Assembly: GCA_905250885.1 (NCBI GenBank)
Contig: CAJNOQ010003136.1
Location: 1-21,274 of the forward strand
Reading direction: 5' to 3'
Length of the DNA: 21,274 nt
Source: Didymodactylos carnosus
Lineage: Eukaryota
The first letter of the stretch is position 1. Every line of letters starts with the position of its first letter. Shown here piece by piece: positions 1,054-16,647 of this stretch. The notes under the pieces are model-generated. The model did not search any database, was not told the origin of the DNA, and worked only from the letters and a program-made list of their open reading frames with translations. The position numbers were made by a program, and so were the translations under genes.

Positions 1054-1190
1054 GTAGTCCAATTAAATCTGGTCCTGTGGTTAAATCGAAAATCGATATT
1101 ACCAAAATAAAAGTATGGAATTATGATGATATCAATTTGCCAACATTTGATGAAATAAATGCTGAAATTGCAAAATGGGCAATATTTAAA
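1054..1190 (+). CDS. Possible PARP4-like exon (C-terminal end of BRCT region; ...KSKIDITKIKVWNYDDINLPTFDEINAEIAKWAIFK). Exon limits and phase uncertain
   Basis: Acceptor ctttttag at 1052-1053, donor GTATTC at 1191. KIKVWNYDD resembles human PARP4 RLLDVKNYDP at the end of BRCT. Not phase-reconciled with the next exon. Confidence 0.3.
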
Positions 1191-1449
1191 GTATTCAGCA
1201 TCAGTTTTTGTTTATTCTTCAGTTACAACACGTTTTCTTTATAGGAAACGAATGATAATTCATTTGTTTATTTTGTCTTGGAAATACAAGTTATACCAGA
1301 TAATCGAATGACCGTTACAAGTGAACATCGAATACGATTTCGTTATGAAAAACAGATGTTTTCAACAGATCAAGTATGTTAACATGCCTATAATAAAACT
1401 TATATATTTGTGTGTCTTTCTTCATTTCTGATCAAAAACGAAAAAATAG

Positions 1450-1589
1450 TTCAATACATGTACAGTGATGATGTGAATGAACAGGAACAATTATTTTCAT
1501 CGTATTACTATCGTATTGCAACAATGCCTCGTATAATAAAAATCAAAGACATGTTACCAAATCATATCGGTTCCAAATCACTTGTTCGG
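1450..1589 (+). CDS. Possible PARP4-like exon (QYMYSDDVNEQEQLFSSYYYRIATMPRIIKIKDMLPNHIGSKSLVR), inter-domain region
   Basis: Acceptor aaaaatag at 1447-1449, donor GTACGT at 1590. Open frame. Weak similarity to the PARP4 region between BRCT and the helical domain. Upstream junction unresolved. Confidence 0.35.
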
Positions 1590-1687
1590 GTACGTCGCTT
1601 TCTTCCACTGTTTCGCGAAACGTGCTGTTATGTACATTTGTATATTGTAGTTATTATGGTGTCATAAGATTGATACACAATCAATAG

Positions 1688-1788
1688 ATGATAGCATTGG
1701 TCAATTAGTTGAATCAATATGGTTAGAATCAGTTGGTGATCTAAAAGAGTTGTTGAGTGTTCAACCAGAAACAATAACAGTGAAAAAT
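1688..1788 (+). CDS. PARP4-like exon (DSIGQLVESIWLESVGDLKELLSVQPETITVKN). An alternative acceptor at 1650 would extend it 5' to 1651 and leave only a 43-bp intron
   Basis: Acceptor caatag at 1686-1687 (or tattgtag at 1649-1650), donor GTAAGA at 1789. Matches human PARP4 SQEVSDLVEMIWAEALGHLEHML. Confidence 0.55.
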
Positions 1789-1977
1789 GTAAGAGAAAGA
1801 CGAGGAAAAAGCTTTTCTACGCTTTGAGTAGGCTTGGACTTCCTGGTTATAGAAGAACAGATAAAGCAGCTTATAGTGCACTCGAGAGGGGGCATCCAAC
1901 GTTGAGGAATTCTAACTGACTAACAAGGTCCTTCAGACTCAATTTATGTATCTTAGTGTTTTAAATTGTTTATTTAG

Positions 1978-2151
1978 ATTATCGAAGCTGAAGCTGTTCT
2001 ATTGGAGCAAAAGCGTTTCTTAGATAATAATGCGAATGATGTATCAGTTGAAATCAATGCCAAATTTTATTCACTTATTCCACACAATTCGCTGTTTGTA
2101 TTGGATTTAAATAATCGACGTGTACTACGTGAAAAAATGGATCTGTGTCAA
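1978..2151 (+). CDS. PARP4-like exon, PARP alpha-helical regulatory domain (IIEAEAVLLEQKRFLDNNANDVSVEINAKFYSLIPHNSLFVLDLNNRRVLREKMDLCQ)
   Basis: Acceptor tatttag at 1975-1977, donor GTAAAG at 2152. The FYSLIPH motif is a hallmark of the PARP helical domain (FYTLIPH in PARP1, FYRLIPH in PARP4). Phase 0 continuity with the 1688-1788 exon. Confidence 0.8.
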
Positions 2152-2317
2152 GTAAAGTTTAACTTTATTCTTTCATCTGTAAAAAGGGGGATAAAAATTT
2201 CAGATTTTCAACAATTTTTCCCTTTACAAATTTTCACTCCTTGTTCTTCTTCAGAAGAAGAATTTATAGGAAGAGTTACACAAAAACATACTTTTCTTTT
2301 TGCTTTGTTCGGAGTAG

Positions 2318-2481
2318 ATGTTGCGTGATATGTTAACTGTCAATGAAATAACAAATTGGAATGTAAAAGCCTCCACTGAAGCTAAATATCGTTCGCTGAA
2401 ATGTTATATAAATACGATGGACAAAGATTCATTGGAATTTAGAAAACTTAGTGATATGATTCATTTATCATCCACAGATTC
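2318..2481 (+). CDS. PARP4-like exon (MLRDMLTVNEITNWNVKASTEAKYRSLKCYINTMDKDSLEFRKLSDMIHLSSTD-S)
   Basis: Acceptor ggagtag at 2315-2317 after a pyrimidine tract, donor GTATGT at 2482, ends in phase 2. AKYRSLKCYI matches human PARP4 AKYRALRCKI. Confidence 0.75.
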
Positions 2482-2542
2482 GTATGTATTCTGTGTGTAA
2501 TAACAAAAACGACACAATCACGACTATGATTTTATGTTACAG

Positions 2543-2680
2543 AAATGAACAAGTAATTATTCATAATATATTCGAAGTGACTAGACAAACGGAAGTAATT
2601 AATTTTCAAACAACATTACATAATCAATGTCAACTCTTTCATGGTTCAAAATACAGCAATTTTCTTGGTATTTTATCAAG
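2543..2680 (+). CDS. PARP4-like exon, start of the ADP-ribosyltransferase fold (NEQVIIHNIFEVTRQTEVINFQTTLHNQCQLFHGSKYSNFLGILS-R)
   Basis: Acceptor ttacag at 2537-2542, donor GTAATT at 2681, phase 2 in and out. Contains the catalytic H-G-S motif (LFHGS...NFLGILS compare LLWHGSR..NFAGILSQG of PARP1). Confidence 0.85.
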
Positions 2681-3114
2681 GTAATTTACTTCAATGAATT
2701 TTTTAACGAACCTTAGGGTCATGTAAATGACCCAAAATAGGACGTGTACAATCCCCAAGTCAACACTATTGCCGTAGTCATGCCACGAGCACGCTTATCA
2801 CGACATGATGGCTATAGATTTGCTTACTCATGTGGCGATTGCTATAAAATTTTGATGTCACTTTGCGATCGCGATATATTCTTACTATTAGGGTTTTCCA
2901 TGAACATGGAAACACGCTCTCCTCTCTTAGAAACACGTTACTTATGGCAAGTAATATTAAGGTTTCAGTAGCTTGCAGACCCAGGTTGATTACAACTAAC
3001 TTAGTTCTCTTTTTAGTTCTCTTTGAAACCATGGTCTATTCTTTTGTGATGATGATAGCGAATAATTTGAGAAGAGTTCCATATGTTTACGCTGATAATT
3101 TTTTATTTTTGTAG

Positions 3115-3213
3115 AGGTTTGTTAATGCCAAAAATAATTGTTAATGAAATGGGAAATACAAGAACTGATGTCGGACATTTAGGTTATGGTTTGTACTTTT
3201 CAGATTCAGTGAG
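3115..3213 (+). CDS. PARP4-like exon, catalytic domain (R-GLLMPKIIVNEMGNTRTDVGHLGYGLYFSDSV)
   Basis: Acceptor ttttgtag at 3111-3114, donor GTAATA at 3214. GYGLYFSDS is equivalent to GKGIYFADM of PARP1 (nicotinamide-stacking Tyr). Phase 2 to phase 2. Confidence 0.85.
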
Positions 3214-3275
3214 GTAATATATTTTTATGGTAATAGCGTACTTTAATCTTATCGTTTCTCTATGTGTTGTTTTAG

Positions 3276-3459
3276 TACGTCTTTGCAGTACACAAATAAA
3301 AGTGATCAAAACAGGAAGCGTTTATTGTGTATATGTCAAGTGGCTCTTGGTGACAGTGCGAATTACTACTCATATGCATGTGATTTAACGCAAGCACCGG
3401 AAAATTATCATAGTGTTCATGGTGTTAAAATGACAAATGAAAATCATTCAGTATTTGAA
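3276..3459 (+). CDS. PARP4-like exon, catalytic domain (S-TSLQYTNKSDQNRKRLLCICQVALGDSANYYSYACDLTQAPENYHSVHGVKMTNENHSVFE)
   Basis: Acceptor ttgttttag at 3271-3275, donor GTAATT at 3460. LCICQVALGD compare LLLICDVALGK of human PARP4. YHSVHGV compare YDSVHGV. Confidence 0.85.
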
Positions 3460-3533
3460 GTAATTTTTTTGTCTTATCCTCTGATAATATATTATGTATC
3501 ATTCATTAATTCTAATTTTCTTTTCTTGTACAG

Positions 3534-3690
3534 GATAATGAGTTTGTCATTTATAATCTTGATCAACAACGTCTTCTCTATTTGGTGGAAGTTTCATGGC
3601 ATCCACATGATGTCATTTCAAATATTCCCATCACAAAATTACCAATTATATGGGATCAAATGGCAGAGCGGCAACTATCAACAATAGAAA
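3534..3690 (+). CDS. PARP4-like exon, end of catalytic domain carrying the catalytic Glu (DNEFVIYNLDQQRLLYLVEVSWHPHDVISNIPITKLPIIWDQMAERQLSTIE-)
   Basis: Acceptor cttgtacag at 3531-3533, donor GTAAAA at 3691, ends in phase 1. NEFVIYN compare NEYIVYD of PARP1 and DEFVVYK of PARP4. The H-Y-E triad is therefore complete. Confidence 0.85.
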
Positions 3691-3749: not shown

Positions 3750-3877
3750 TACCAGAACTAATTGAAGACGAAGTAATACAGATCGCTGAACAAGATTATG
3801 GTCTTATTACTTCTGGTCGACGTTTGCCATTGAAACAATTTCATATTCGAGCACAATTAATTGATATTACCGCCGAA
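3750..3877 (+). CDS. PARP4-like exon, start of VIT domain (PELIEDEVIQIAEQDYGLITSGRRLPLKQFHIRAQLIDITAE)
   Basis: Acceptor ttttttttag at 3747-3749, donor GTAAAT at 3878. Phase 1 in, phase 0 out. Confidence 0.8.
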
Positions 3878-3937
3878 GTAAATAGTTAATGTTTTTATAT
3901 TAAATAACGTCGGTTGTTTGAAATTCTCATATTGCAG

Positions 3938-4156
3938 GTTGTACTGTATCAATTGTTTCATAATAATAATTCGCAATCAATAGAAGCCAAATATGTTTTC
4001 CCACTTGATGAACATTCAACCGTTTGTGGTTTTGAAGCACATGTTAACAACAAGGTCATCATCGGTGTGGTTAAAGAAAAAGAGCAAGCTAAAAAAGAAT
4101 ATAGGGAGGCAATTGAAAAAGGTCACGGTGCTTATTTAATGGATCAAGAACAACCG
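3938..4156 (+). CDS. PARP4-like exon, VIT domain core (VVLYQLFHNNNSQSIEAKYVFPLDEHSTVCGFEAHVNNKVIIGVVKEKEQAKKEYREAIEKGHGAYLMDQEQP)
   Basis: Acceptor atattgcag at 3935-3937, donor GTATAT at 4157. Near-diagnostic VIT signature: human PARP4 has IEAKYIFPLDDKAAVCGFEAFINGKHIVGEIKEKEEAQQEYLEAVTQGHGAYLMSQDAP. Confidence 0.9.
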
Positions 4157-4224
4157 GTATATTCATGAAAATAAAAAATAATAAATAGAATTGAACCATC
4201 CATAATACTTTCTTTTTTATCTAG

Positions 4225-4389
4225 GAAGTATTCAGCGTGTCCGTCGGAAATTTACCACCCAATTGTGAAGTTGTTATTAAAATTACTTATGTCCAAGAAT
4301 TGCCAATTGAAAATGATGATGTGATGTTTCGCTTACCAGCAAAAGTAGCCGATTGGCAATCGAAAATGGCCATTGAACATCACGACCAA
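4225..4389 (+). CDS. PARP4-like exon, VIT domain (EVFSVSVGNLPPNCEVVIKITYVQELPIENDDVMFRLPAKVADWQSKMAIEHHDQ)
   Basis: Acceptor tttatctag at 4222-4224, donor GTGCGT at 4390. Human DVFTVSVGNLPPKAKVLIKITYITEL. Confidence 0.85.
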
Positions 4390-4704: not shown

Positions 4705-5547
4705 ACTATACTACCATCAATTGGAATGACATCAACAACTGATTCAAATCAAATTCAATTTAGCTTAAAAGCCACCGTACAAATGCCATACTCAATAAAA
4801 AAACTATTTTCACCAACACATCGTCTTCGTCGAAAGGTAACCGATTGTCAAGCAATGATTGAATTAATTGATAATATTTTTGATAAAGATTTTATTTTAA
4901 CAATCACATTGCAAACAATTCATATTCCTCGTATGTTAGTTGAAACATATAAATCAGATTCAGAATCAAAAGCTTGTATGTTAACATTTTATCCTGAATT
5001 TGATTTTGAAACAACACAAGTCACAATTGAAATTATTTATTTAATCGATTCATCAAATTCGATGGATGGAAAAACGATGAAACAAGCGAAACAGTTGGCA
5101 CATCTTTTTCTGTCAAATATGATAAGTTCCACCAATAAAAATAACAACATTTTATTTAATATTGTTACATTTGGCTCAGATAATGATGAATGTTTTCCTG
5201 TGTCTGTTCCATTAATAAAAGAAAATTTAGACAAAGCAAAACATTTTGTTCTTCATTCATTGAGTCATCGTGGTAATACAGATCTGTTTTCTGTTCTTCG
5301 AAATTATTCATTATTATCTGGTAGAGGAGAACGTAATTTTATTTTATTATCCGATGGTCATCTGAATGATATGAAAGCTATTATTTTGTTGTTAAAACAG
5401 CAGCAAATGAAACATGATCGATTTTTTACATGTTCTATTAGTGAAACAGCTAATAAACATAACCTGAAACAATTAATTAGTTGTACAAGTGGTGGGGGTC
5501 AATCAACAGTATTCGATACTAACTATCGTTCGAAATGGAAAATAAAA
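4705..5547 (+). CDS. PARP4-like large exon: end of VIT plus the complete von Willebrand factor A domain with an intact MIDAS motif (IIYLIDSSNSMDGK ... NIVTFGSDND ... FILLSDGHLND)
   Basis: Acceptor ttgttttag at 4702-4704, single open frame of 281 codons. DxSxS (DSSNSM), T (VTFGS) and D (LLSDG) of MIDAS are all present. SPTHRLRRKVTDCQAMIEL compare human SDTHELKQKRTDCKAVIST. Proposed 3' donor GTAGAA at 5548 is weak but gives KWKIK/VLNILESIRQP. In-frame stop at 5560-5562 if unspliced. Confidence 0.8.
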
Positions 5548-5617: not shown

Positions 5618-5797
5618 GTATTGAATATTTTAGAAAGTATTCGTCAACCATGCGTCAACGGGATTGTTATTGATTGGCATAACGAACAATTAGATGAAAA
5701 TAACAATCTGCAATTTCTTCAAGCACCATCACATATACACTCACTGTTTAACGGTCAACGTCTAACAATTTATGGTTTTATTAATAACTGCTATAAA
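5618..5797 (+). CDS. PARP4-like exon (VLNILESIRQPCVNGIVIDWHNEQLDENNNLQFLQAPSHIHSLFNGQRLTIYGFINNCYK)
   Basis: Acceptor ttgttgtag at 5615-5617, donor GTAAGA at 5798. Human PARP4 has QAPAQVPSLFLNDRLLVYGFIPHCTQ. Confidence 0.8.
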
Positions 5798-5999
5798 GTA
5801 AGAAGAATGCTAAAAAGTAAAATTAACTAATATCACACTTCCTCAAAACCTAAAAGATGCCTGACTCCTCTCTTTTGATACACTGTTACGACTATTTAAC
5901 TGCATCAATGTGACAGATTTGTCCGTAACATTTCTGAGATATAAAAAGCGATGAACCTTAAATGCTATCTCAACTTTTTATTAAAAGTAATAATGAAGA

Positions 6000-6580
6000 C
6001 TATTACCGTTTAAAAAAAAGAAAGGCAGGTGGGTAGATTGCTTATAACTTTTAAAGGGAAAGAGCTAGAGACATGCGGTCTTCACCGTTGGATAGAGAAC
6101 ATCAGAGAACGTAGGCGTATGTGAAAACTGGGCCTCCAGGTAAGGTTTATCATGGCAAACCTTTCGATGCAAAGTCTACGAGACCGCCGTTCCAGGACAG
6201 TACGATGGATTTTGATTTTCAAACAGTGCAATGGATAGCTCAAACCGAGATCTACAATTCTAGACCGGTCTTAACTCTCTATCTCTTAAGATTCAAGAGT
6301 TATAAGCACTTTTACGAGCGCTCCGATTTCGGTTAGTTGACCTTGAGTGATCTTAAGATAGGTCAAGATAGAGGTATTCGGCAACGCTGAGTCGAGCGAT
6401 GATGTTTATTTTTGATTGCAAACCAACCTATAGTCACTAAATAAAAATTTCGAAATATCCACTCTATACGCAACATAGCGGTAGAATGCTTTAATTTGAA
6501 AATCCGCATGTCTCTAGCTCTTTCCCTTTAAAAGTTATAAGCAATCTACCCAGCTGCCTTTCTGTCTTAAAACGGTAATA
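6000..6580. mobile_element. MITE-like non-autonomous DNA transposon (about 581 bp) with roughly 80-bp terminal inverted repeats, inserted in a PARP4 intron
   Basis: Left end ctattaccgtttaaaaaaaagaaaggcaggtgggtagattgcttataacttttaaagggaaagagctagagacatgcgg (6000-6078) is the reverse complement of the right end ccgcatgtctctagctctttccctttaaaagttataagcaatctacccagctgcctttctgtcttaaaacggtaatag (6504-6580) with few mismatches. No transposase-length ORF inside. Confidence 0.7.
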
Positions 6581-6869
6581 GAGCTGGTACCCGGCAACAC
6601 ATGACCGAGTCTAACTTAACAGAATCACACATCACGACCCTGTTTGTTCTTGATTTATCTAACAATGTACTGCTCGTCGCCGTAGTCCTTCCTTCTCATC
6701 GTGGATAAAAGGAGGAGCAGGATAGTGCTTATGTAAGCCTGTGAGATTCAGACTCAATATGTTTGACCACTGCGCAAACAGTTTACGTGTCATCATCAAA
6801 TCATTAATTTCAAAAAGACGATTTTTCTTTAAATCAACTAAGTATTGTTCTTTTCTGTCTTGTTTAAAG

Positions 6870-7068
6870 GCAACACTAAAAGCAAATGTTAATGGATGTG
6901 AATTGACAACGACTGTATTTACAAATAAAATGACTGAAACAACAGGAAAAATTCTACATTGTCTGGCAGCTCGAGCAATTATTGATGATTGGGAAAATGG
7001 ATTGGTGAATATGGACGATATAGAGAATGAAGTAAATTTTTTCTTTCCAATTAAAAATAGTAGTAAAG
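6870..7068 (+). CDS. PARP4-like exon (ATLKANVNGCELTTTVFTNKMTETTGKILHCLAARAIIDDWENGLVNMDDIENEVNFFFPIKNSSK-)
   Basis: Acceptor ttgtttaaag at 6867-6869. KILHCLAARAII matches human MIHKLAARALI. Donor chosen at 7069 (GTGCAA, phase 1) because only this phase joins the next exon. A stronger consensus donor GTAAAT at 7032 exists but is phase-incompatible. Confidence 0.6.
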
Positions 7069-7151
7069 GTGCAACACATTATAGTTTTGTGTTTAGCTGA
7101 TAAAATCTCACTTTAAACAACATATTATTGATCTGAGTATAAAATATTCAG

Positions 7152-7220
7152 TCGTTAGCCCATTTACAAGTTTCATTGCCATCGAAGAAAGGGATAAAGA
7201 CGATAAATTTACACATGAAG
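7152..7220 (+). CDS. PARP4-like exon (V-VSPFTSFIAIEERDKDDKFTHE-G)
   Basis: Acceptor atattcag at 7149-7151, donor GTGAAT at 7221. FTSFIAIEERDKDD compare human FTSFVAVEKRDENE. Phase 1 to phase 1. Confidence 0.65.
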
Positions 7221-7287
7221 GTGAATATTGAATGATTCATCCTTCACTTATGAACAGCCGATTACAGTCACTCTTTTTTTGTTTTAG

Positions 7288-7367
7288 GTGTTCAACTGTT
7301 AGATATTATGTTAGAAAAAGACATAGATGTATTACCATACGTTGGATGGGATGGCGAAAAATCGCAG
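7288..7367 (+). CDS. PARP4-like exon (G-VQLLDIMLEKDIDVLPYVGWDGEKSQ)
   Basis: Acceptor ttgttttag at 7285-7287, donor GTATAT at 7368. DIDVLPYVGWDGE compare human EDVDFLPYMSWQGE. This motif is specific to PARP4 rather than the paralog VWA5A. Confidence 0.75.
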
Positions 7368-7702
7368 GTATATGAAAAGTTTGAGAAACGTTCGCTGAAC
7401 GTTCACGTGTTCATTTTTTCCCAACGCTCGTCCTGTATGATGACTGTCGAGCGACTCACGCTTTCATCGTGAAAATAGGCTTTCAAATCACTTTTCCAAA
7501 TCTACACGGGAGCGTTCTGCGTTGGCTCAGGTACTTTCCTCAATCAGTTTCAACCAGTAGCAGAAGAAATTTATCACCATTGAATTCAGTCTCGAGCAGG
7601 ACTTCCGATTTGAAGTATTGTCCGAGAAGTGTTAATAACTACTGGACTTACAAAGCTTTTTTTATGTAATCCGTATAATTTTTCATTTTATTTCACTTTT
7701 AG

Positions 7703-7928
7703 TCAGTCTCAATAAAAGAACAATTAATTGATTCAAAAAAACAATTGGATTCATCGTCTGTAACAGAGAAAATTCGATTATGTCCGGAACTTATTTCCTT
7801 ATGTAAAAATGTTTCATATCGACAATGCTATGAAAAATTTGATACAATGTTAACGTTGATTGATACATATTATTATACATTAAAAAATCAAGAACAAGCT
7901 ATCGAACTTCTGAAGCAAATGAAATTCG
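7703..7928 (+). CDS. Tentative PARP4 exon (SVSIKEQLIDSKKQLDSSSVTEKIRLCPELISLCKNVSYRQCYEKFDTMLTLIDTYYYTLKNQEQAIELLKQMKF-)
   Basis: Acceptor cacttttag at 7699-7702, donor GTAATT at 7929. Open and phase-compatible (0 in, 1 out), but no counterpart in the human protein. Could be a lineage-specific insert or a false exon, since 7367 can also join 8527 directly in frame. Confidence 0.3.
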
Positions 7929-7999
7929 GTAATTATATAATTCAAAATACTCTAAAGTTTTTCTACTTTTTTGGTGTTCTCTTTTTCGTTCGTATCTAG

Positions 8000-8090: not shown

Positions 8091-8152
8091 GTAGTTAAAA
8101 TACTGTGTTGAGAATATTACACATAATCCTACATGCTTTAACTCTGTTTCAG

Positions 8153-8252: not shown

Positions 8253-8308
8253 GTACTTTCAGATTTCGAAAAAGGAAATAAAACTCGTTACTTACACATT
8301 TATTTTAG

Positions 8309-8930: not shown

Positions 8931-9740
8931 GAAACATAATTGTCGAAACGTTCTTCTTGCACAGTTTGAGTCAATGATATGTGATTAAAGTTTGATGAAA
9001 ATTGATGAGAGAGGTTTTTTAACCTATTAGTTTGTAATTAATTAATATTGGTTTCCTTGCCAAAATAGGAAAAGTATGGATAGTTTTTGAACAGGGAAAG
9101 TGATAAAGACCTCCTGGCTTCATCTACCGAGCCAAGACTCTGATGCATCTTTTGATGAAAAAGTAAGTTTGTAACTCTTTTCACAAATTAAGATTCTGAA
9201 AGAATCGTTGGAAAACCTGTTATACTTCAAAATTTTGTGATAGACCTGTAATTGTTTTTCTTTCATGGATGGACAGTCCAAAGCATTCTCTCGAAATGGA
9301 GAGCAGACAAGGTGTTCACCTTTAGTTGTTTAAGCCTGGTATTGGATTTTCTCTGTGAGACTGGTGCCTCAAGACTGGTACCTGATGACTTTCAGGTAGA
9401 TCAAAAACAACTGGAATATAGGTGATCGAGTACGCTGAGTCTTCTGGTGATGTTTATATTCCGAAGAAGGTTGAAGAACTCACTAAAATCTATTTTCTCT
9501 GAAATATACAGTTTTTGGCTAATTTTACGTAATACTAAAACCTTCAAAAACTAGTTTATCACTTTCCCTGTGAACGTTATTCAAAAACTATCCATGCTTT
9601 TCCTATTTTGGCAAGGAAACCAGTATTAATTAATTACAAACTAATAGGTTAAAAAACCTCTCTCATCAATTTTCATCAAACTTTAATCACATATCATTGA
9701 TTCAAACTGTGCAAGAAGAACGTTTCGACAATTATGTTTC
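8931..9740. mobile_element. Foldback-type element: 810-bp unit with about 175-bp near-perfect inverted arms around a 430-bp GC-richer core, in a PARP4 intron
   Basis: Left arm 8931-9105 (gaaacataattgtcgaaacgttcttcttgcacagtttgagtcaatgatatgtgattaaagtttgatgaaaattgatgagagagg...ggaaaagtatggatagtttttgaacagggaaagtgataaa) is the reverse complement of 9556-9740 (tttatcactttccctgtgaacgttattcaaaaactatccatgcttttcc...cgtttcgacaattatgtttc), with one 9-bp indel. Confidence 0.7.
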
Positions 9741-9866
9741 AATTATGTTTCACTTTTATGCTATTTGATTGTACTTCAACTAATATCATAATAGTAAATT
9801 ATCTTTAAAACCTATTTCGGCTGCTTATGTGCCGGTTGAATTCATACTAATTTTGAAAAAATACGA

Positions 9867-10374
9867 GTGGGTATTTTTTGAATAACTTTTGACAGAAGCA
9901 AGATAGAGAGCTGCGGTTTTCACCGTTGGAAAGAAGAGCTGAAGACGCATCGAATCATATATCATAGATTTTCTTGATTTGTTCCTTGTAAGGTTTTCAA
10001 TTGACCTTTTTAAGAACAAATATATTTGATAAGTTGTTTACATTGAATTTTCAATTATCAAGTGTAAATTCAACCCACTAATCGAAGATCTACAAAGTGC
10101 GGAAGGTTGAGATGAATAATATGCATTTTAGTAGAGCTTCTAATAGAATTTTCTAGCAAAATCTGTGAAAAAAGCTCACTTTTGTGCTTTTTCCTTTTTT
10201 CAGAAAAAAAAAACATTTTTTCGACACTTAGAAAATTGCACAAAAATACTTCAGAAATCAATATTAGAAAAGCCTATAATATATGATTCGACGCATCTAC
10301 ATTTTCTCGCTCCAACGGTGAACACCGCAGCTCTCTATCTTGTTTCTATGAAAAGTTATTCAAAAAATACTCAC
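9867..10374. mobile_element. Second MITE-like element (about 508 bp) with 95-120-bp terminal inverted repeats, related to the 6000-6580 element
   Basis: Left gtgggtattttttgaataacttttgacagaagcaagatagagagctgcggttttcaccgttggaaagaag...gcatcgaatcatatat is the reverse complement of right atatatgattcgacgcatc...ctccaacggtgaacaccgcagctctctatcttgtttctatgaaaagttattcaaaaaatactcac. Shares the internal core GCGGT(C/T)TTCACCGTTGGA with element 6000-6580. Confidence 0.7.
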
Positions 10375-10749
10375 TAGCATTCATGGAACCGTGACACATG
10401 CGAACAAAACAGATTTTATCAAAATTTTATTATTCTTATATTAGTTGAAGTATGATCAAATAGCATAGAAAAATAGAGCTTTTTTTTCTCTATCAGACTA
10501 CATAAAAAGAAAATTTCTTAAAGTCTACTTTGGAAGAAAAAATTGGAACTCTCACTACTTTTGGTATGCTCTTAGTACTTACCTGTTCAGCGAAAAAGTT
10601 TAAGGACAGTCAGATGTTCTCTTCAAACCGACAAGGACGGATTTACGTATAGGGGTGGATGAACTCGCACTTGAAAAACTTCGTTTATTTTCTAAAAAGA
10701 CAAGCTGTCACGCTTATATCTGTTTCTTGTTAATTTCTTCTCTAATTAG

Positions 10750-11382
10750 AGCATATAACCGCATTATCACCTGCTAGTAGCGGACCATTCTTAAACTCAG
10801 CAGAACAATCGCGTGAAGCTGATGAATCTGGAAATGGAGAAGAATTTGATTTACTTGATAGTATAGAACTATGCGTTCTCCCCACAATATCAATAACTCC
10901 ACAGCAACAAACATATTCTACATCAGTCTCTGGTTTTTCTCCTGCAACGCCATATGTATCTTCAAAAAGCGCCGCTAAAAAACAGAAAGCTGTTTTCTCG
11001 TCTACGTCAGAATTAACATCATCAACATATTTTCCAACTTCGCCAACATATTCTCCAACTTCGCCAACATATTCTCCAACTTCGCCTACTTACAGCGCAA
11101 CACAATATGAAAATTGTCCGTATACAGCCGATTGTGATCTCATGCTGAACCGGACGCCTGCTACACTAGTATTTGGTACTAATGATAGAGACAATACCAG
11201 ACCTGTTTATACTCCAAATTTCCCATCAGTACCATTGATGTCAACCACCACATCTTCACCGTTTCTATTTGGTGCATCATCCGTAGAAACAACAGCCCCA
11301 TCTTTCGGATCCGCTGCAGCGGCAGCTCCTCAGCTACAATCATTCGGTTTCTCTTCTCCTAATCAACAACAGCCGCCTCAGT
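10750..11382 (+). CDS. PARP4-like exon, low-complexity S/T/P-rich linker with three YSPTSPT heptads and FG motifs (E-HITALSPASSGPF...TYFPTSPTYSPTSPTYSPTSPTYSATQYENCPYTADCD...PFLFGASSVETTAPSFGSAAAAAPQLQSFGFSSPNQQQPPQ-)
   Basis: Acceptor tctaattag at 10747-10749, donor GTGAGT at 11383. A 211-codon open frame with no ATG until 11142 indicates an internal exon. APSFGSAAAAAPQLQSF compare human PARP4 VASFGSAAPPRQFDASQF. Phase 1 in and phase 1 out fit both neighbours. Confidence 0.65.
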
Positions 11383-12194
11383 GTGAGTACCAAAGAGAAT
11401 TCTATTTCTATTTTTTTGTAAAGCTGATAATCCCAATTTGAGTATGTATGAGTGAAAAGCTTTTACGTCGAACTATTTGAGGAATAATTTTCGGTATTTT
11501 TTTGCAATTTTATTCTTCTCTCCCGTGCGAAATTTCTGTCTCATATACCTATAAATTCAATACCGATTCTGCAAGCTCGATCTTCACAAAAACTATTCTT
11601 TTTACGGTATAGGTGTTTTTATTATTTGAACACTATGCCATGCCTTCACATATGCAAATAAAGGAAAAGAAATTCTCGAATAAAGATTACTACGATTTAT
11701 ACGAACGATGGTAAAGCATCATTTTTAAGAGCGACTTAGCTGAGTCCGAGAGGTTTGATGAGTTATTCTTGAAATACAGCAGTACCAGCAGCATAAATAT
11801 AATATATTCACCGAAATAATTTAAATTTTCTTCTTATCATCCGCTAGTCCTGGGAAAGTGCCAAAAGCGTCATTCTATCCTTAGTTTTAAAAAAGTCAAT
11901 AAAAAAGCAGTTCAAGCTAAACTGGGAAAGATTATCTTTTACTTGTCGTCCATTTGTGAGCAGTATTATTTATCGAACAAGTTTACATTCAATGAATACA
12001 TGTAAACATTAGGACAGTAGCTAGGATTTCGCTAACGAAAATATACAGTGATCGAGATATGATCGGGATTTTCCGAGAAGGGATTGTTCATAAAAAATTG
12101 AAGTCTGGAGAATTGTACATGCAAAACTGCAGTGACGCTCGGATGAACCTGAATTTATTGGTCGTTATTCTTCTTTTTGAATTTTTTTGTCCAG

Positions 12195-12535
12195 TATTTC
12201 CTGTTCAAAGTCCACAATCATTCGGCTCAACGACAACTTTATCGATGGATTATCAGCCAAAACAAATGGTAACAAAACAAAATCGTGGAGCTCAAAGACA
12301 TTCAAAGAAAATGTCCACGGTTGAAATAAACCAAGGGACTGAACAATACCAACGACAAGCAATGCCTCCAGCACCACAAATGTCAGATTTAAATAAATCA
12401 ATACAAGCAGCAGGATACTTTCCCTCCTTATTTGAAAACGAGTCATTCTATGACAAGTCGTCGGCAGCATCTACATCTTTATTGGGAAAAATAAAAAATG
12501 TTGTTACGTCAGGAATTAGCAGCCTTGGGTTTACG
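12195..12535 (+). CDS. PARP4-like exon, linker (L-FPVQSPQSFGSTTTLSMDYQPKQMVTKQNRGAQRHSKKMSTVEINQGTEQYQRQAMPPAPQMSDLNKSIQAAGYFPSLFENESFYDKSSAASTSLLGKIKNVVTSGISSLGFT)
   Basis: Acceptor ttttttgtccag at 12191-12194, donor GTAAGA at 12536 (perfect consensus). Phase 1 in matches exon 10750-11382. The frame stays open to 12733 if unspliced. Confidence 0.55.
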
Positions 12536-12559
12536 GTAAGATACAGATCTATGTTGGAG

Positions 12560-13400
12560 GAAGTAATGATGCCTGCTGAGATGAGACGAGCACGGGAAGA
12601 GGCTCATTCAAGCCCTAAGGTTTTGGTTACTGGCGGTAGGACGGAAAGCTTCACCTTTAGTGCAGAAGATACTAATATCCGTTCCGAAATACAGTGGAGT
12701 CTCATTTATTCAACAACTAACCATGTTAACTAGAGTGATGAGACGTTCAAAGACTGGTAGCCCACTGTCTAAGCTATCGGAATGACCAAATTTATACTTG
12801 AAATTCATTGAATCTACATGGTTTAGCGATCAATTCCTTGAGAGATAGATGAAACACGCCACCTACCGGCGGTGGTTCGGCTTGACTTTTCATATCATTT
12901 CATAGCAAAAAAGTATTGTCTTTTTAGTGGTAAAAACGCATGGTTTTATCTAGGCCTGCACCGGTTACCTTATCGGAACCCTCAGAGTAGTAGTTTTAAA
13001 AATCAGAGAAAACTTTAAAAAAATTTTTGTCAGGAGTCTCGATAAGTAATTTTCTCTACAAATAATAACTGAGTATGGCATTTATCTGTAGTCAAGACAA
13101 AACATGCAATTGCAACAAGGTGGCGAGGACTTCCAACGAGGACTTTCACCAAGATCAGTGAGCTCAAGAAGGGGCGGCTTTTCGGAATTAGAACGTGGGA
13201 GAGGAGCAATGTCTAATAAAGGAAAACAAGCTGCGCACGCCGCCCGGTTTACTGATGTAAGTAATATTCTATTTAACAATAGAAAAATATATTACTTAAG
13301 CCATTCGTAAATCGTTCAGTTATGCTGCGGAGCCAGTTTACAGAGAATTTAGTTGAAATAAACGCAGACAGCAGCGGCTCGGCAACGAAGTTTTGCATAC
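12560..13400 (+). pseudogene. Colinear, frame-disrupted remnants of an Hsp70 nucleotide-binding (ATPase) domain; GC-richer than the flanking sequence
   Basis: In Hsp70 order: PKVLVTGGRTESFTFSAEDTNIRSEI (about 12640-12715; compare [24 protein letters not shown]), DETRHLPAVVRLD (about 12850; weak match to NEPTAAAIAYGLD), QQGGEDFQRGL (13118-13150; compare HLGGEDFDNRL), ISELKKGRLFGIRTWERS in the +2 frame (13155-13210; compare ISENKRAVRRLRTACER), RSQFTENLVEINAD (13325-13365; compare RARFEELNADL). Spacing is roughly as in Hsp70. Stops and frame changes lie between the pieces. No GIDLGTTYS or DLGGGTFD motif found. Confidence 0.35.
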
Positions 13401-13823
13401 GGAACGAACGTTATAGTCTATGTACTCTTCATCCTAAATATCATGTCGGTTTCGTACTATTGTAGACAAGAGCAGACGAACAGGCTCGAAGTTGTCACAG
13501 TCCTGTTCCACTTCCAGATTTAGAAACAGACTCACCACCATTGCAATCAATCGTACAAAGGTCGTACGTATGAAAAGTCAAATGAAAGAAAAGAAATTGA
13601 TTGTTTTCTCTTTTAATTTAGTGAGAACGAATTGTCTTCGTTGACAGAAACCAGAAAAGCTAATAAAAGCGCCAGCAAAGGATACTTACACAAGACCGAT
13701 GCTCTAAGATCGAAAAAGAATTTACTACCACCACCACAAGAAGAAGAACAGAAAGTAGTAATAAAATATGAATAGACTGTTAGCAAACATTAAAAAAATA
13801 TTCGTTATTGTTTTCACTTTTAG

Positions 13824-14033
13824 TATCATGTTAATATTTGTGATCTATTATTGTTAGACGTTGCACCATTATCTTTGGGAATTGAGCTAGTGAGCGGTGA
13901 ATATGTAGCCGTTATCCAACGAAATACAACAATACCAACAAAAAATTGGGCTATATTTACAAATGCATTTGCTGGTCAAACAACAGCTACAGTTAAAATT
14001 TTTGAAGGTGAACATCGATTAACAAAATATAAT
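13824..14033 (+). CDS. Hsp70-family substrate-binding domain, exon 1 ([70 protein letters not shown])
   Basis: Acceptor cacttttag at 13821-13823, perfect donor GTAAGT at 14034. Canonical Hsp70 linker plus beta-sandwich motifs [16 protein letters not shown] and KRNTTIPTK. Phase 0 to phase 0. Confidence 0.8.
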
Positions 14034-14945
14034 GTAAGTTGTTTTTCAAAATTTTCTTTATCTGGAAGAGAATTAGGTAAGCTCATTTTTCTAGTTCAAA
14101 TTGGCCTAAAGCTCTTTTCAAATTAACAGACCCTTCACTCAACAGAAGACCAACATATCCAAATTTTAGCAAAAAGTGTTATTCTCTTGATCCTTTTTTT
14201 CGGTCAACAAATTTATTCGAATGTTGATCTTTTTTTTTCCATAAGAAATTATCAGAATTTTATCTCCTCCCTTTCAGCAGTTATGAACCCATAAAGCAAC
14301 CAAAGTGAGAGCAAGTGGGAGTTTCTGATGTTACAGGATTCTTTCTTCAAAGAGAACATAGTTGTGAATTATTGATGTGTGCGCCAGAACCATAACTGTG
14401 GCTGATTTTTTTGCTTAATTTTAGTATGCGCTTTACTTACAAAAACCCAAAAATACGTATCGACTTTCTTAGAAACTTGTTTTCATAAAAAAAACTGATG
14501 TTTAACGTCAGAATTCGTCTTTGTTACTCTCCATAATGAGAAAAACTTCGCTAATTGATTTTGAGGAAAGGCTGTTTAAGCCGTGAATAGGTGCAGACAA
14601 AAAATCCGTTCGGCGGCAAAGAAAGTTCGGAAGCAAAGAAATATTAACCAAGTTTTGAAGCGTATAACTTCCGATCTAAACATCCTTTCACAATTGCTGT
14701 CCGAACTCCTATTTCAAAGAGAAATGTGTGATTTGTTTTGGAAAGAGATAAAGGTATAATCTACATGTCACAGTTAAATCTCTCAAGAAAATCCTGGATT
14801 TTAACGGGAGGGGGAAGTTTACAGCAAAATAAGGCTTTTAACCGACTCTATCTGACAAAGACATTGTTAAATCTTTCTATCGTTAATGCGTCTCTTATCG
14901 ATTCTTATGACTAAATGAAAAAAACGTTTTTGTGTTTTACTGTAG

Positions 14946-15105
14946 AATTATTTGGGTGAGTTTACACTTGAAAAACTGTCCAAAAATTTTGCTTCTGAAA
15001 CATTGAACATAACTATTACTATGGATATCGATGCTAATGGAATATTAAACGTTACTGCCGAAGAACAAGCATCGCGAGTGAAAAAGTCAATTGCAATAAC
15101 AGATG
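14946..15105 (+). CDS. Hsp70-family substrate-binding domain, exon 2 ([54 protein letters not shown])
   Basis: Acceptor ttttactgtag at 14941-14945, donor GTAAAT at 15106. [37 protein letters not shown] of canonical Hsp70 aligns residue for residue. Confidence 0.85.
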
Positions 15106-15179
15106 GTAAATTGAAGACTTGTTTCAAGCGTTTTGTAGCCAATGTTAAAAAAGAAATTATCTTTTTTTTCCTCATTTAG

Positions 15180-15254
15180 ATAAAGGTCGTCTGACACGCG
15201 ATTTTATTGAGCAACATGTACGTTTTGTAGAAAGTTTACCATCTGCTGATCACG
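15180..15254 (+). CDS. Hsp70-family exon 3 (D-DKGRLTRDFIEQHVRFVESLPSADH-)
   Basis: Acceptor ctcatttag at 15176-15179, donor GTAAGA at 15255. ITxDKGRLSxEDIE is the conserved Hsp70 SBD-to-lid junction. Phase 1 to phase 1. Confidence 0.75.
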
Positions 15255-15332
15255 GTAAGAACGACATAAACTGTATATACTGAAAGTTGGTTTATAAAAC
15301 TTCTTATATAAGAGTTCTTTTCTTCTTTCTAG

Positions 15333-15361: not shown

Positions 15362-15456
15362 GTGGGTGATTGCTAGATTTTTGCCTCACTAAAATTGCCT
15401 CAGTTCTGCAAGTTAGACTTTTTGATGCATTAATGTGTTTTTTTGGTTTCTTTCAG

Positions 15457-15514
15457 CTTGATGGTAAAACAAACTTCCATCCATACAATTTTTCAGCAAA
15501 TGATATATCGATTA
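15457..15514 (+). CDS. Possible exon (LDGKTNFHPYNFSANDISI-) that either terminates an Hsp70-like ORF at TAG 15517-15519 or, via the weak donor GTTAGT at 15515, joins PARP4 exon 15580
   Basis: Acceptor ggtttctttcag at 15451-15456. Only a weak donor is available. The frame hits a stop 3 nt after the proposed donor. Confidence 0.25.
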
Positions 15515-15579
15515 GTTAGTAAAATTGTTATTTTCTTGAGCCAGAAATCCTGCATTTCGTCTTTTCGTTACTCTACCAG

Positions 15580-15665
15580 ATTCGTCGACACCATTACTTG
15601 ATCAGATGCACCGCAGAATGATGACAGCTGAATTAATCGACAGTATATTTCAACTTCAGAATGAT
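15580..15665 (+). CDS. PARP4-like C-terminal module exon (N-SSTPLLDQMHRRMMTAELIDSIFQLQND)
   Basis: Acceptor ctctaccag at 15576-15579, donor GTAAGC at 15666. TAELIDSIFQLQNDDGSF compare human PARP4 TELLSLQTEDGFW. Needs phase 1 from upstream. Confidence 0.6.
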
Positions 15666-15732
15666 GTAAGCTGAACAATACTAACGTCCTCTCTGTTTAC
15701 ACCATATATCCTGTATTTTTCTCACGTTGTAG

Positions 15733-15835
15733 GATGGTTCATTTTCGTTCACCAAAGATCTGCAGGCCATATTCAATAATATTGATTTTGGTATAGTTCA
15801 ACAACATTTAACTGAACAAGGACTAAATTCATTTG
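15733..15835 (+). CDS. PARP4-like C-terminal (MVP-interaction region) exon (DGSFSFTKDLQAIFNNIDFGIVQQHLTEQGLNSF-)
   Basis: Acceptor cgttgtag at 15729-15732, donor GTAAGT at 15836. Human EDGFWKLTPELGLILNLNTNGLHSFL. Confidence 0.7.
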
Positions 15836-16032
15836 GTAAGTCTACGAATACATCATTTTTGAGTAGGAACTTTTTTCCATAGAATTTCCATGAAAGGAGG
15901 TCTATAATAGAGATGCAATCGGACCGGGCGCCCCGGGGTGAGGCAAATTCTTTATTCCGAATGAAAAGAAATGCAAAAGGTTCATTGTTCTTATAGAAAT
16001 TACTATCCCGAAAGAGTTCTTGAGGAACGTTT

Positions 16033-16200
16033 GTACCGGTCGCTTACATCAAAATTTTTAGAAAAATAGTCGGTCAACCGGCCGGTACCGGTCATGATTT
16101 TTTTGTTGACCGGTTGTATCTCTAGACTATAAGTGTTGTTGCAATTTATTTCCACCCCATAATGAAGGATCTTAATGTTATGCATTTTTCATCGGATCGC
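16033..16200. repeat. Copy A of an approximately 170-bp dispersed repeat (second copy at 18700-18882, about 88 percent identity), located in a PARP4 intron
   Basis: cgcttacatcaaaatttttagaaaaatagtcggtcaaccggccggtaccggtcatgatttttttgttgaccggttgtatctctagactataagtgttgttgcaatttatttccaccccataatgaagg... aligns with 18712 gcgcttacatcaaaagttttagaaaaatggtcggtcgaccggccagtacttgtcatgatttttttgttgaccggttgcatctctagactataaagtgttgttgcaatttagttccactccataatgaggg. Contains an internal CCGGTCAAC...GTTGACCGG hairpin. Confidence 0.6.
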
Positions 16201-16229
16201 AAGATTTTGATGACTAAAATGTATTTTAG

Positions 16230-16384
16230 CTGAAAAAATCCGCAATGAAATCAATGATTTGATTTGTACAACTGTGATCGTAATTTATATTATCTCGCAA
16301 AGTGAATTATCATTGACATTAACATTTCCACTTGATATTCATTCAATCAGAAATTTAGTTGAACAAATTAAAAATAATGGCAAG
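16230..16384 (+). CDS. PARP4-like C-terminal exon (A-EKIRNEINDLICTTVIVIYIISQSELSLTLTFPLDIHSIRNLVEQIKNNGK)
   Basis: Acceptor gtattttag at 16225-16229, donor GTAATT at 16385. DLICTTVIVIYII compare human DLIATMLVLQFIR. Phase 1 in matches 15835. Confidence 0.7.
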
Positions 16385-16452
16385 GTAATTTACTCAATAC
16401 AGAAGATCTTCTTTGTTCTTAAATGTTCCTTTCTTTTGTTTTTCTTAAAAAG

Positions 16453-16647
16453 AAAATTGATCCAATAATGGAAAACTACAGAAGAGAATATGGAATGGCA
16501 TTTGATTATGTTTTAAAAATGCGTGATAAAAATTCAATGTATTGTACACAGTTAGAGTTAGGCTCTACGTGGGAATTATATATTCAAAAAACGTTGCTTG
16601 GCCTTGATAATAGTGGTGATCATGGTATTACTCTAGTTGTACATTAA
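16453..16647 (+). CDS. PARP4-like terminal exon with stop codon (KIDPIMENYRREYGMAFDYVLKMRDKNSMYCTQLELGSTWELYIQKTLLGLDNSGDHGITLVVH*)
   Basis: Acceptor tttcttaaaaag at 16449-16452, TAA at 16645-16647. MAFDYVLKMRDKN...CTQLELGSTWELYIQKTLLGL compare human C-terminus WAFEAIKQASEWV...CPRLELGNDWDSATKQLLGL. Confidence 0.75.
   Translation, partial: KIDPIMENYRREYGMAFDYVLKMRDKNSMYCTQLELGSTWELYIQKTLLGLDNSGDHGITLVVH

Follow-up and report, generated by a model that had tools for sequence, protein, structure and literature searches.

The locus analysed here raises two questions: which PARP it encodes, and whether that gene tells us that its owner has vaults. In the window (the whole 21,274-nucleotide stretch of Didymodactylos carnosus DNA under study) a first-pass annotation, made from the sequence alone, had read a near-complete ortholog of PARP4, the vault PARP. 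That observation is confirmed, whereas the interpretation built on it is partly supported. We are highly confident that the locus is a PARP4 gene of this bdelloid rotifer and that an Hsp70-derived insert within it is real; apart from this insert, it is an already deposited and mostly ordinary PARP4 gene.

Gene structure and family assignment

On the forward strand, to which all coordinates refer, positions 1054 to 16647 hold a PARP4 gene of 35 exons with GT-AG at every intron. A 30-exon model was threaded by hand first, and the public annotation P0199 (NCBI CAF0997286.1/CAF3768889.1 of D. carnosus) was then mapped, giving 35 exons that match exon by exon at 100% identity; CAF0997286.1 is a partial protein of 2098 aa deposited as "unnamed protein product". 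The coding exons of P0199 span 1056 to 16644 and are followed by a TAA stop at 16645-16647. The first reading had missed the Hsp70 exons within 13824-15254 and five further exons, at 8309-8389 and 13092-13256 (central low-complexity part), 13466-13563, 13622-13757 and 15180-15254. Position 1054 is an exact exon start (acceptor TTTTTAG/GT, phase 1). Since no BRCT-coding sequence was found in 1-1053 by tblastn with bdelloid PARP4 N-termini as queries, the 5' end lies beyond the window, which is a whole contig: the gene is truncated at the contig edge and only its BRCT-coding 5' exons are missing, in agreement with the description as near-complete.

The best PDB match of the product is full-length human PARP4 (E 1.9e-204, query 77-1117 against human 202-1226), whereas PARP1 reached only E 2.7e-19 in the same search, which upholds the assignment to PARP4 and not to PARP1-3, tankyrase or VWA5A. 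The three motifs quoted for it are also found on the forward strand: DIDVLPYVGWDGE at 7320-7358, SFGSAAAAAP at 11301-11330 and LELGSTWELYIQKTLLGL at 16552-16605. The word ortholog needs qualification: the gene is a true family member, but D. carnosus has no fewer than four PARP4-like loci, of which this is one. The proposed exclusion of insects, nematodes, fungi and plants as the source fits a bdelloid rotifer. Encoded in order are WGR-like, HD, ART (H-Y-E), VIT, vWA (MIDAS), PARP4-specific helical, disordered FG-rich, Hsp70 substrate-binding (SBD) and MINT regions; the claim that domain order matches PARP4 thus holds for the shared domains but not for the in-frame SBD before MINT, of which the human protein has none.

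Catalytic, VIT and vWA domains

The first three exons (1054-1190, 1245-1373 and 1485-1589) encode a post-BRCT linker and a WGR-like region, and align with the N-terminal regions of the Adineta ricciae protein and a D. carnosus paralog, as well as with the human protein from its residue 202 onwards. WGR had no Pfam match in 1054-1589, and the label is given by position, following PMC10711553. The HD and ADP-ribosyltransferase (ART) domains follow at 1651-3690 (exons 1651-1788 to 3534-3690), with matches to Pfam PARP (E 1.5e-28 over aa 267-443) and to the human PARP4 HD-ART crystal chain 8sx1 (E 2.6e-61). The triad residues H (in LFHGS, 2634-2648), Y (in GLYFSD, 3188-3205) and E (in DNEFVIY, 3534-3554) align column for column with human LLHGS, GIYFSD and DDEFVVY.

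The VIT exons (3750-4389) match Pfam VIT at E 3.8e-37 over aa 502-612 and show about 77-90% identity to a D. carnosus paralog, with dN/dS 0.03. A single exon (4705-5547), 80% identical to paralog P0001, encodes the vWA domain (Pfam VWA_3 3.2e-11, VWA 4.7e-09) with a complete MIDAS motif: DSSNS at 5047-5061, GNTD at 5269-5283 and LLSDGH, which contains the SDG, at 5344-5361. Alignment to human PARP4, Pfam and these motif coordinates together bear out the earlier claim that triad, VIT and a MIDAS-competent vWA are intact. From the triad one would predict an active ADP-ribosyltransferase, probably a mono-ADP-ribosylating one by analogy with human PARP4, which is such an enzyme despite its H-Y-E.

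Beyond the vWA exon, a PARP4-specific region containing DIDVLPYVGWDGE and a helical middle region (5618-8713) align with human PARP4 up to residue 1226 and with Rotaria fragments; 14-3-3 similarity was not detected in the middle region of the window. The low-complexity, disordered exons at 10750-13757, known from a single automatic annotation, carry FG-type motifs, three YSPTSPT heptads at 11028-11096 and a 21-nt tandem repeat (3.0 copies, 97% matches). This region gave no alignment with Adineta and its sequence is unconserved between genera.

An Hsp70 substrate-binding domain precedes MINT

Between the disordered region and MINT, three exons (13824-14033, 14946-15105 and 15180-15254) encode in frame the substrate-binding beta-domain of an Hsp70. 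The insert matches Pfam HSP70 (E 2.5e-29, profile positions 381-526 of 599) and the human HSPA1A SBD chain 4po2 (E 2.3e-28), and its top Foldseek matches are Hsp70 SBDs; the AlphaFold prediction has a mean pLDDT of 54, a low confidence. It comprises the interdomain-linker motif DLLLLDV, the whole beta-sandwich and, at its beginning only, lid helix A (DKGRLTRDFIEQHV), with no ATPase domain and, of the lid, only this first helix.

Could these exons be an intronic relic of an hsp70 gene that automatic prediction joined into PARP4? They do lie among long repeat-bearing introns (912 and 1288 bp), and the assemblies have fragmentary, at times chimeric gene models, P0197 and P0231 extending into unrelated sequence. 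The exons are, however, bounded by canonical splice sites, and across the predicted junctions the frame stays open through all three and on into MINT. An SBD precedes MINT in every other bdelloid PARP4 retrieved that covers the region, namely in D. carnosus paralogs, at least four Rotaria species and A. ricciae. Independent predictions for seven or more other loci give the same order, and one carrier is a full-length BRCT-to-MINT protein of 2063 aa. In A. ricciae, where introns measure about 50-60 bp, one exon (L003 8107-8457) joins upstream, non-Hsp70 PARP4 sequence to the first SBD half, and the intron after ...TKYN coincides in position with that of the window, SBD intron positions being common to different bdelloid families. 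Clade-specific substitutions are fixed in 8/8 sequences, and dN/dS against a D. carnosus paralog is below 1 in the SBD exons (0.55, fairly high, in exon 1 with its 54 codons, and 0.21) as in MINT (0.22-0.33). Nor are there nearby remnants of the nucleotide-binding domain or lid, which a decayed gene should have left. We regard a relic as extremely improbable: across Bdelloidea the Hsp70 piece belongs integrally to the PARP4 coding sequence and is under selection there, which is as firmly established as the family identity and domain content of the gene. We found no description of it in the literature, and the catalogue of extra domains in PARP4-like proteins (PMC4245714) contains no Hsp70-derived domain.

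Is the peptide-binding groove retained?

The insert is likely to be binding-competent, judging from the residues that line the groove. Among the hydrophobic-pocket residues named in PMC4110032, F428 and I474 are kept in 8/8 sequences, L403, I440 and V476 are each Ile or Val, and V438 is Ala in 8/8, so that 6/6 positions are kept or conservatively replaced. The arch (A406 to I/V/T, Y431 to Ala in 8/8) resembles DnaK M404/A429 and is hydrophobic in 7/8 sequences, the exception being Thr at position 406 in P0183. The lid-contact residues G407, V409 and R469 are all replaced, as would be expected if the lid is gone.

The PARP4-clade consensus also differs at 40 of the 93 columns conserved in canonical SBDs, among them the invariant residues G407, R447 and R469 as well as the L5,6 loop PPAPRGVPQ, so that the ability to bind peptides may have changed or disappeared. 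The domain would then persist as a folded spacer or protein-protein interaction surface, a reading compatible with the truncated or degenerate SBDs tolerated in paralog models P0201 and P0215. Yet besides the retention of pocket and arch, the changes are not scattered but clade-fixed and clustered at lid-contact positions, which suggests constraint and a shift in function instead of decay, and we consider a loss of binding quite unlikely.

If the groove binds, its ligand may lie within PARP4 itself. When isolated or truncated in the lid, Hsp70 SBDs bind their own linker in trans and form oligomers. Most bdelloid copies keep the linker motif D(L/E)LLL(L/I)DV despite the lack of an ATPase domain on which it could dock, a lid-truncated BiP oligomer (7a4u) and 2v7y are among the structural matches of the insert, and the adjoining disordered region holds many hydrophobic segments of the FG type. 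The SBD might thus act in cis or between PARP4 molecules, and not on foreign clients, by binding the DLLLLDV linker or the FG-rich region, and autoinhibit, compact or oligomerise the protein. The disordered region is unconserved between genera, which makes any specific ligand in cis, apart from the linker, unlikely; as a whole we hold such self-binding to be unlikely as well.

The MINT domain and the vault

Four exons (15580-15665, 15733-15835, 16230-16384 and 16453-16644) and the stop codon make up the C-terminal domain (15580-16647), which had been described as MVP-interaction-like. A profile of 11 sequences (nine named bdelloid, two untyped Logan reads) supports this description, as it matches residues 1575-1704 of human PARP4 (E 1.6e-13), the sole significant PDB match, with no other below E 0.26. 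The A. ricciae ortholog has a precomputed PF26156 PARP4_MVP-ID match, marked weak, and Rotaria homologs bear the UniRef label 'PARP4 MVP-ID C-terminal domain-containing protein'.

Does this domain place the rotifer enzyme in vaults? Across eukaryotes, PARP4 and vaults are missing together in nematodes, insects, fungi and plants (PMC4245714), and the bdelloid Adineta vaga has annotated MVP genes that are induced by radiation and rehydration (PMC10809525). That D. carnosus has vaults, as had been concluded from the locus, is plausible, but the conclusion is drawn from the correlation in the literature (PMC4245714) and is not shown by the locus itself. Of the four MVP-contact residues of human MINT, only S1614 is invariant (Ser) in bdelloids; K1618 is Lys in the window copy and Asn in Rotaria, while every bdelloid sequence has other residues in place of Q1682 and R1689. 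The MVP residues that contact PARP4 are in turn reported to be conserved only in vertebrates, and PARP4 has been proposed as a late entrant to the vault (PMC12280208). MINT-like domains also occur outside PARP4 in bdelloids, alone in P0180 and joined to an EF-hand in the model P0224, and could mean a different, lineage-specific use. A true PARP4 that works outside vaults, with MINT and the Hsp70 domain serving another complex and the locus silent on vaults, is thus possible but doubtful, given the coinciding absences, the stress-induced MVP genes and a significant MINT homology in which S1614 and, in this copy, K1618 are among the best-conserved positions. We would give docking of the rotifer PARP4 to the vault an even chance.

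A possible function

Taken together, we infer with moderate confidence a mono-ADP-ribosyltransferase with its MINT docked to MVP and a lidless Hsp70 domain that binds hydrophobic peptides. The MINT homolog would dock PARP4 to the inside of the MVP shell, and the Hsp70-derived domain, which lacks the ATPase part and keeps just the first helix of the lid, would therefore bind short hydrophobic peptide segments independently of nucleotide and without a lid. Located beside MINT, it would hold clients, or hydrophobic segments of PARP4 itself, near vault wall and enzyme. Client capture in particular is a tentative and rather doubtful suggestion from sequence features.

Comparison with known systems

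Human PARP4 (9bw6, 9bw7, 11jf, 8sx1; PMC12280208, PMC10711553) has the same order WGR-HD-ART(H-Y-E)-VIT-vWA-disordered-MINT, with continuous alignment from human 202 to 1226, homologous MINT regions and the shared motifs DxDxLPYxxWxGE, SFGSAA and LELGxxW. The rotifer gene differs by the SBD of about 150 aa directly before MINT, by a MINT in which Q1682 and R1689 are not conserved, by an expanded family with four or more loci in D. carnosus, and by BRCT exons missing from the window, BRCT being present in the A. ricciae ortholog. PARP4-like proteins with VIT-vWA and C-terminal 14-3-3, actin or ubiquitin-related modules (Perina et al. 2014, PMC4245714) are likewise Clade-5 PARPs with a protein-interaction domain added after vWA. 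In D. carnosus, paralog P0215 carries a 14-3-3 fragment together with an Hsp70 piece.

The insert scores highest against cytosolic Hsp70 and Hsc70 and, compared with HSPA1A (4po2) and DnaK (1dkx), keeps the beta-sandwich, linker motif, first lid helix, pocket and arch. Unlike these chaperones it lacks the nucleotide-binding domain, lid helices B-E and the EEVD tail, has the L5,6 loop changed from PPAPRGVPQ to xxNFAxxTL, R447H and D452Y fixed and the lid contacts replaced, and sits inside an unrelated enzyme. A parallel in layout is engineered: MINT fusions carry cargo into vaults, the module likewise lying directly N-terminal to MINT, which suffices for targeting to the human vault lumen (PMC12280208). 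In the rotifer the arrangement is natural, with a chaperone-derived, putative peptide binder as the module and a putative targeting to bdelloid vaults.

Gene model and identity of the vault PARP

The window is AT-rich (about 34% GC), and its forward strand has the appearance of a eukaryotic gene with multiple exons. With the largest exon as query, bdelloid rotifer proteins were retrieved, the best of them from Didymodactylos carnosus (80% identity), and an exhaustive profile search with cluster look-up led to P0199, an "unnamed protein product, partial" of 2098 aa from this species (NCBI CAF0997286.1/CAF3768889.1). It maps to the window with 100% identity in 35 exons, with GT-AG introns throughout, from 1056 to 16644 and is followed by TAA, so that the span proposed in the first-pass annotation (1054-16647) is exactly the annotated partial CDS. 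An independent, hand-built 30-exon model agreed with the public one in 29 of its 30 exons, except for boundaries at 8713, 11380 and 12211, and is superseded by it: P0199 adds exons at 8309-8389, 13092-13256, 13466-13563, 13622-13757 and 15180-15254, all five of them short and lying in or beside low-complexity sequence. The public model is favoured because the last of these exons extends a region of Hsp70 homology.

The assignment to PARP4 is well borne out. Among all PDB sequences the best match is full-length human PARP4 (E 1.9e-204), with PARP1 reaching only 2.7e-19, and query residues 77-1117 align continuously with human residues 202-1226. The crystallized HD-ART chain of human PARP4 (8sx1) matches with E 2.6e-61, the ADP-ribosyltransferase (ART) fold is nearest to PARP4 among the PARPs, and the Pfam PARP catalytic domain is recognized at 1.5e-28. 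The three peptides quoted in favor of this assignment were all located in the window. The H-Y-E catalytic triad is indeed intact, LFHGS, GLYFSD and DNEFVIY aligning column for column with LLHGS, GIYFSD and DDEFVVY of the human enzyme, and a VIT domain (Pfam 3.8e-37, aa 502-612) followed by a vWA domain (VWA_3/VWA, aa 754-913) lies C-terminal to the ART domain as described, the latter with a complete MIDAS motif (DSSNS...GNTD...SDG, pattern DxSxS...T...D). From these residues it is reasonable to predict that ADP-ribosyltransferase activity is retained; poly-ADP-ribosylation should not be assumed, since human PARP4 possesses H-Y-E and yet mono-ADP-ribosylates (PMC10711553).

The gene was also correctly called near-complete. 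The exon at 1054 follows a good acceptor and opens in phase 1, so the missing 5' exons must fall beyond the contig edge, and no BRCT-coding sequence was detected in 1-1053 by tblastn with the N-termini of Adineta and D. carnosus paralogs (nothing better than E ~1). The N-terminal BRCT domain of animal PARP4 is matched weakly in the ortholog of Adineta ricciae (E 7e-4, under the Pfam cut-off). Where BRCT exons would be expected, the upstream stretch has short repeats, among them a 23-nt tandem repeat (572-653). Neither in this 1 kb nor in the 4.6 kb that follow the gene (16648-21274) was a recognizable gene, Pfam domain or Rfam family found; the longest ORFs not belonging to PARP4 had no Pfam match, and Rfam (e.g., vault RNA) had no match anywhere in the window. 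As originally described, then, this is an ordinary PARP4 gene, with a public sequence and domains already tagged by automatic pipelines.

The MVP-interaction-like domain and the probable presence of vaults

In human PARP4 the domain that interacts with the major vault protein (MINT, residues 1562-1724) binds MVP repeats 3-5 (PMC12280208). The claim that the window protein ends in a comparable domain holds for 15580-16647 when a profile is used: as a single sequence the C-terminus finds human PARP4 only weakly in the PDB (i-Evalue 3.4), and a profile of 11 sequences (nine from named bdelloids and two untyped Logan reads) matches human PARP4 1575-1704 with E 1.6e-13, with nothing else in the PDB below 0.26. 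The A. ricciae ortholog has a precomputed match, marked weak, to PF26156 (PARP4_MVP-ID), and UniRef names of Rotaria homologs agree with this assignment; the local copy of Pfam gave no PF26156 match for the window protein. A word-indexed search with the C-terminus alone reached only D. carnosus and a query including the Hsp70-like region was swamped by Hsp70s, so that the Rotaria and Adineta homologs were reached only by exhaustive profile search.

Of the human residues that contact MVP, S1614 is invariant in the bdelloid domains, K1618 is kept in the window copy and is Asn in Rotaria, and Q1682 and R1689 are replaced. The PARP4-contacting residues of MVP are conserved only in vertebrates, and a late recruitment of PARP4 to vaults has been proposed (PMC12280208). 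The bdelloid MINT may thus serve something other than vaults, a reading that has the two replaced contacts on its side and the invariant serine and the profile match to the human domain against it.

The first-pass annotation had taken the locus as a statement that its source organism builds vaults. PARP4 is missing where vaults are missing (nematodes, insects, fungi and plants), and some vault-bearing lineages lack PARP4 (PMC4245714). In the bdelloid Adineta vaga, MVP genes are annotated, five of which are over-expressed after radiation or rehydration (PMC10809525). On this correlation and the A. vaga genes, D. carnosus likely has vaults, the locus itself being no demonstration.

MINT-like domains also occur outside PARP4. 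P0180 of Rotaria sordida (182 aa) is a stand-alone domain, and P0224 of D. carnosus (306 aa) is a model, perhaps a chimeric one, in which a calmodulin-like protein with four EF-hands is fused to a domain like MINT. If MINT directs proteins to vaults, both would be additional passengers.

A Hsp70 substrate-binding domain inserted before MINT

The PARP4 domains listed in the first-pass annotation are present in the order given, but a further domain between the disordered middle and MINT was missed. Three exons on the forward strand (13824-14033, 14946-15105 and 15180-15254) encode a Hsp70 substrate-binding domain (SBD), spanning the interdomain-linker motif DLLLLDV, the entire beta-sandwich (…RNTTIPTK…IFEGEH…DIDANGILNV…) and the beginning of helix A of the lid (DKGRLTRDFIEQHV). 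The Pfam HSP70 profile matches with E 2.5e-29 over positions 381-526 of 599, and in the PDB the SBD of human HSPA1A is found with E 2.3e-28, cytosolic Hsp70 and Hsc70 outscoring BiP, mortalin and DnaK. A low-confidence AlphaFold2 model of the SBD-MINT segment (mean pLDDT 54), computed from an alignment of 11 rows and used for secondary structure and supportive Foldseek searches only, shows eight strands in the SBD, with Hsp70 SBDs as the top Foldseek matches; it allowed no usable comparison of MINT. The lid beyond helix A and the EEVD tail are absent, the sequence after DKGRLTRDFIEQHV running into MINT, and no ORF resembling the ATPase domain was found anywhere in the window. The protein is therefore not a Hsp70, but only the carrier of a Hsp70-derived domain. 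Human PARP4 has no counterpart to the SBD, its matches being confined to residues 202-1226 and 1576-1706 in the PDB search.

Several independent lines argue that the SBD is a real part of PARP4. It is in frame with both neighbors via canonical splice sites. A second D. carnosus locus (L001, CAJNOK010009539.1; product P0057, 57% identity) holds SBD and MINT within one prediction and has its SBD intron at the same codon as the window. A Hsp70 domain upstream of MINT is found in most of the longer matches to the MINT profile, namely in R. sordida, R. magnacalcarata, the Rotaria spp. Silwood1 and Silwood2 and A. ricciae; R. socialis has only a partial SBD remnant, and the exceptions are the stand-alone P0180 and an untyped Logan protein (P0193). 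The A. ricciae protein P0214 is full-length (2063 aa), extending from BRCT through MINT. Its gene is compact (7.75 kb, with introns of ~50-60 bp). A single exon there holds both non-Hsp70 sequence and the first half of the SBD, and three introns of the gene, those following …TKYN, preceding DGSF and following NS(F/L), coincide in position with introns of the window. Within the species sampled, the insert is, on these gene models, fixed in the bdelloid genera Didymodactylos, Rotaria and Adineta.

The sequence has also remained under constraint. Compared with the D. carnosus paralog, dN/dS is 0.55 and 0.21 for the two SBD exons, 0.22-0.33 for MINT, 0.14 for vWA and 0.03 for VIT, the SBD thus being similar to MINT and above vWA and VIT. 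When eight bdelloid PARP4 SBDs were set against 66 canonical ones, the consensus was kept at 53 of 93 highly conserved columns, and at many of the others an alternative residue is fixed in all eight (e.g., Y431A, V438A, R447H, D452Y). Taken together, these lines of evidence fit one ancient acquisition followed by constrained divergence; a decaying fragment does not fit them.

Paralogs, disordered region and repeats

At least four PARP4-like loci exist in D. carnosus, including L001, L002 (CAJNOK010016398.1) and the locus of P0201. The closest copy has between 80% (vWA) and 57% (SBD-MINT) identity to the window, with a synonymous divergence of ~1-2, as expected if the copies are old bdelloid duplicates. 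In the copy represented by P0201/P0179 the model passes from the first half of the SBD directly into MINT. Another paralog, P0215 (1849 aa), has a degenerate half SBD and MINT, a gene model that skips the ART core, and a clear piece of a 14-3-3 domain (aa 1202-1264, E 1e-12), which echoes the "VIT-vWA plus 14-3-3" class of PARP4-like proteins (Perina et al., 2014; PMC4245714). The middle region of the window protein (aa ~1093-1300) was considered as a degenerate 14-3-3 domain and rejected: it has no Pfam match, and a profile of seven sequences had no PDB hit with E of 5 or less.

Within the disordered exon, positions 11023-11096 (forward strand) encode just over three perfect YSPTSPT heptads (YFPTSPTYSPTSPTYSPTSPTYS) resembling the CTD repeat of RNA polymerase II. 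They arise from a 21-nt tandem repeat (3.0 copies) that has probably expanded recently, given the 97% match between copies, and no such heptads were seen in the sequences of Adineta or of the paralogs. FG-type motifs (FLFGASS, SFGSAAAAAP, SFGFSSP, SFGSTTT) are abundant in 11172-12226 (forward strand), and the equivalent region of the Rotaria sp. Silwood1 protein P0189 holds a long array of near-identical repeats containing SFGG/SFGA, reminiscent of FG-nucleoporins. The two longest introns contain foldback or MITE-like inverted repeats (8930-9741, 9754-10470 and 6014-6568), the first with 162-nt arms (8930-9091 and 9580-9741) of 98% complementarity separated by 488 nt, the other two related and sharing sequence with each other. 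A 92-nt direct repeat (92% identity) has one copy at 16041-16132, in the intron that precedes the last coding exon but one (16230-16384), and another 2 kb downstream of the gene (18709-18800). The short ORFs across it (…QPVNKKIMTxTGR…) are alike in both copies, and it probably represents a dispersed repeat family.

Possible function of the Hsp70-derived domain

We assigned residue roles (pocket, arch, lid contacts) from the SBD of HSPA1A (PMC4110032). The substrate pocket is retained, with I or V at 403, 440 (Ile in HSPA1A) and 476 (Val), F428 and I474 kept, and V438 always Ala, and the arch is hydrophobic, I/V/T at 406 and Ala at 431 resembling Met404/Ala429 of DnaK. At the positions that contact the lid (G407, V409 and R469), all eight bdelloid sequences have other residues. 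Such retention of pocket and arch together with loss of lid contacts is the pattern expected of a lidless peptide binder uncoupled from the ATPase. The domain may instead be a non-binding spacer, a reading favored by the canonical residues lost elsewhere and opposed by the retained pocket; or it may bind in cis to the protein's own linker, which is retained, or to its FG-rich tail.

The sequences show domain content and conservation, from which we infer binding, docking and activity. In the reading that we prefer, MINT would dock the enzyme inside an MVP shell, the Hsp70-derived domain would tether short hydrophobic stretches, either from client proteins or from PARP4, beside MINT, and the ART domain would then modify whatever is nearby. 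It is tempting, if rather improbable in our own estimate, to speculate that the bdelloid vault PARP is a chaperone-like cargo receptor, whose lidless, ATP-independent SBD captures exposed hydrophobic segments of unfolded or damaged proteins and holds them inside the vault beside an ADP-ribosyltransferase. The function of vaults is a long-standing open question, and bdelloids are famous for surviving desiccation and radiation. If it were true, a cargo-receptor role would link vaults to proteostasis under these stresses and offer a concrete, testable mechanism of vault cargo loading, and the EF-hand-MINT and stand-alone MINT proteins would act as additional adaptors that target cargo to vaults. 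Bdelloid MVP and many PARP genes are stress-induced; in A. vaga, 17 PARP genes respond to radiation, and "von Willebrand factor" genes are likewise induced (PMC10809525).

A literature search returned no paper covering both bdelloids and PARP4. In a broad survey of domain architectures, the additions to clade-5 PARPs are 14-3-3, actin and ubiquitin-related domains, with no Hsp70 domain among them (PMC4245714), and the Hsp70-MINT arrangement is the new element of the gene described here. An isolated Hsp70 SBD within an unrelated enzyme is unusual, and this one adjoins MINT, the only domain with a known role, in humans, in loading proteins into vaults. The placement of the SBD immediately N-terminal to MINT is significant, since the fusion of a module to MINT is the standard means by which cargo is loaded into recombinant vaults (PMC12280208). 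A natural module of peptide binder and MINT suggests a direct experiment on vault cargo, and it may be of use to vault engineers as a generic tag for capturing cargo.
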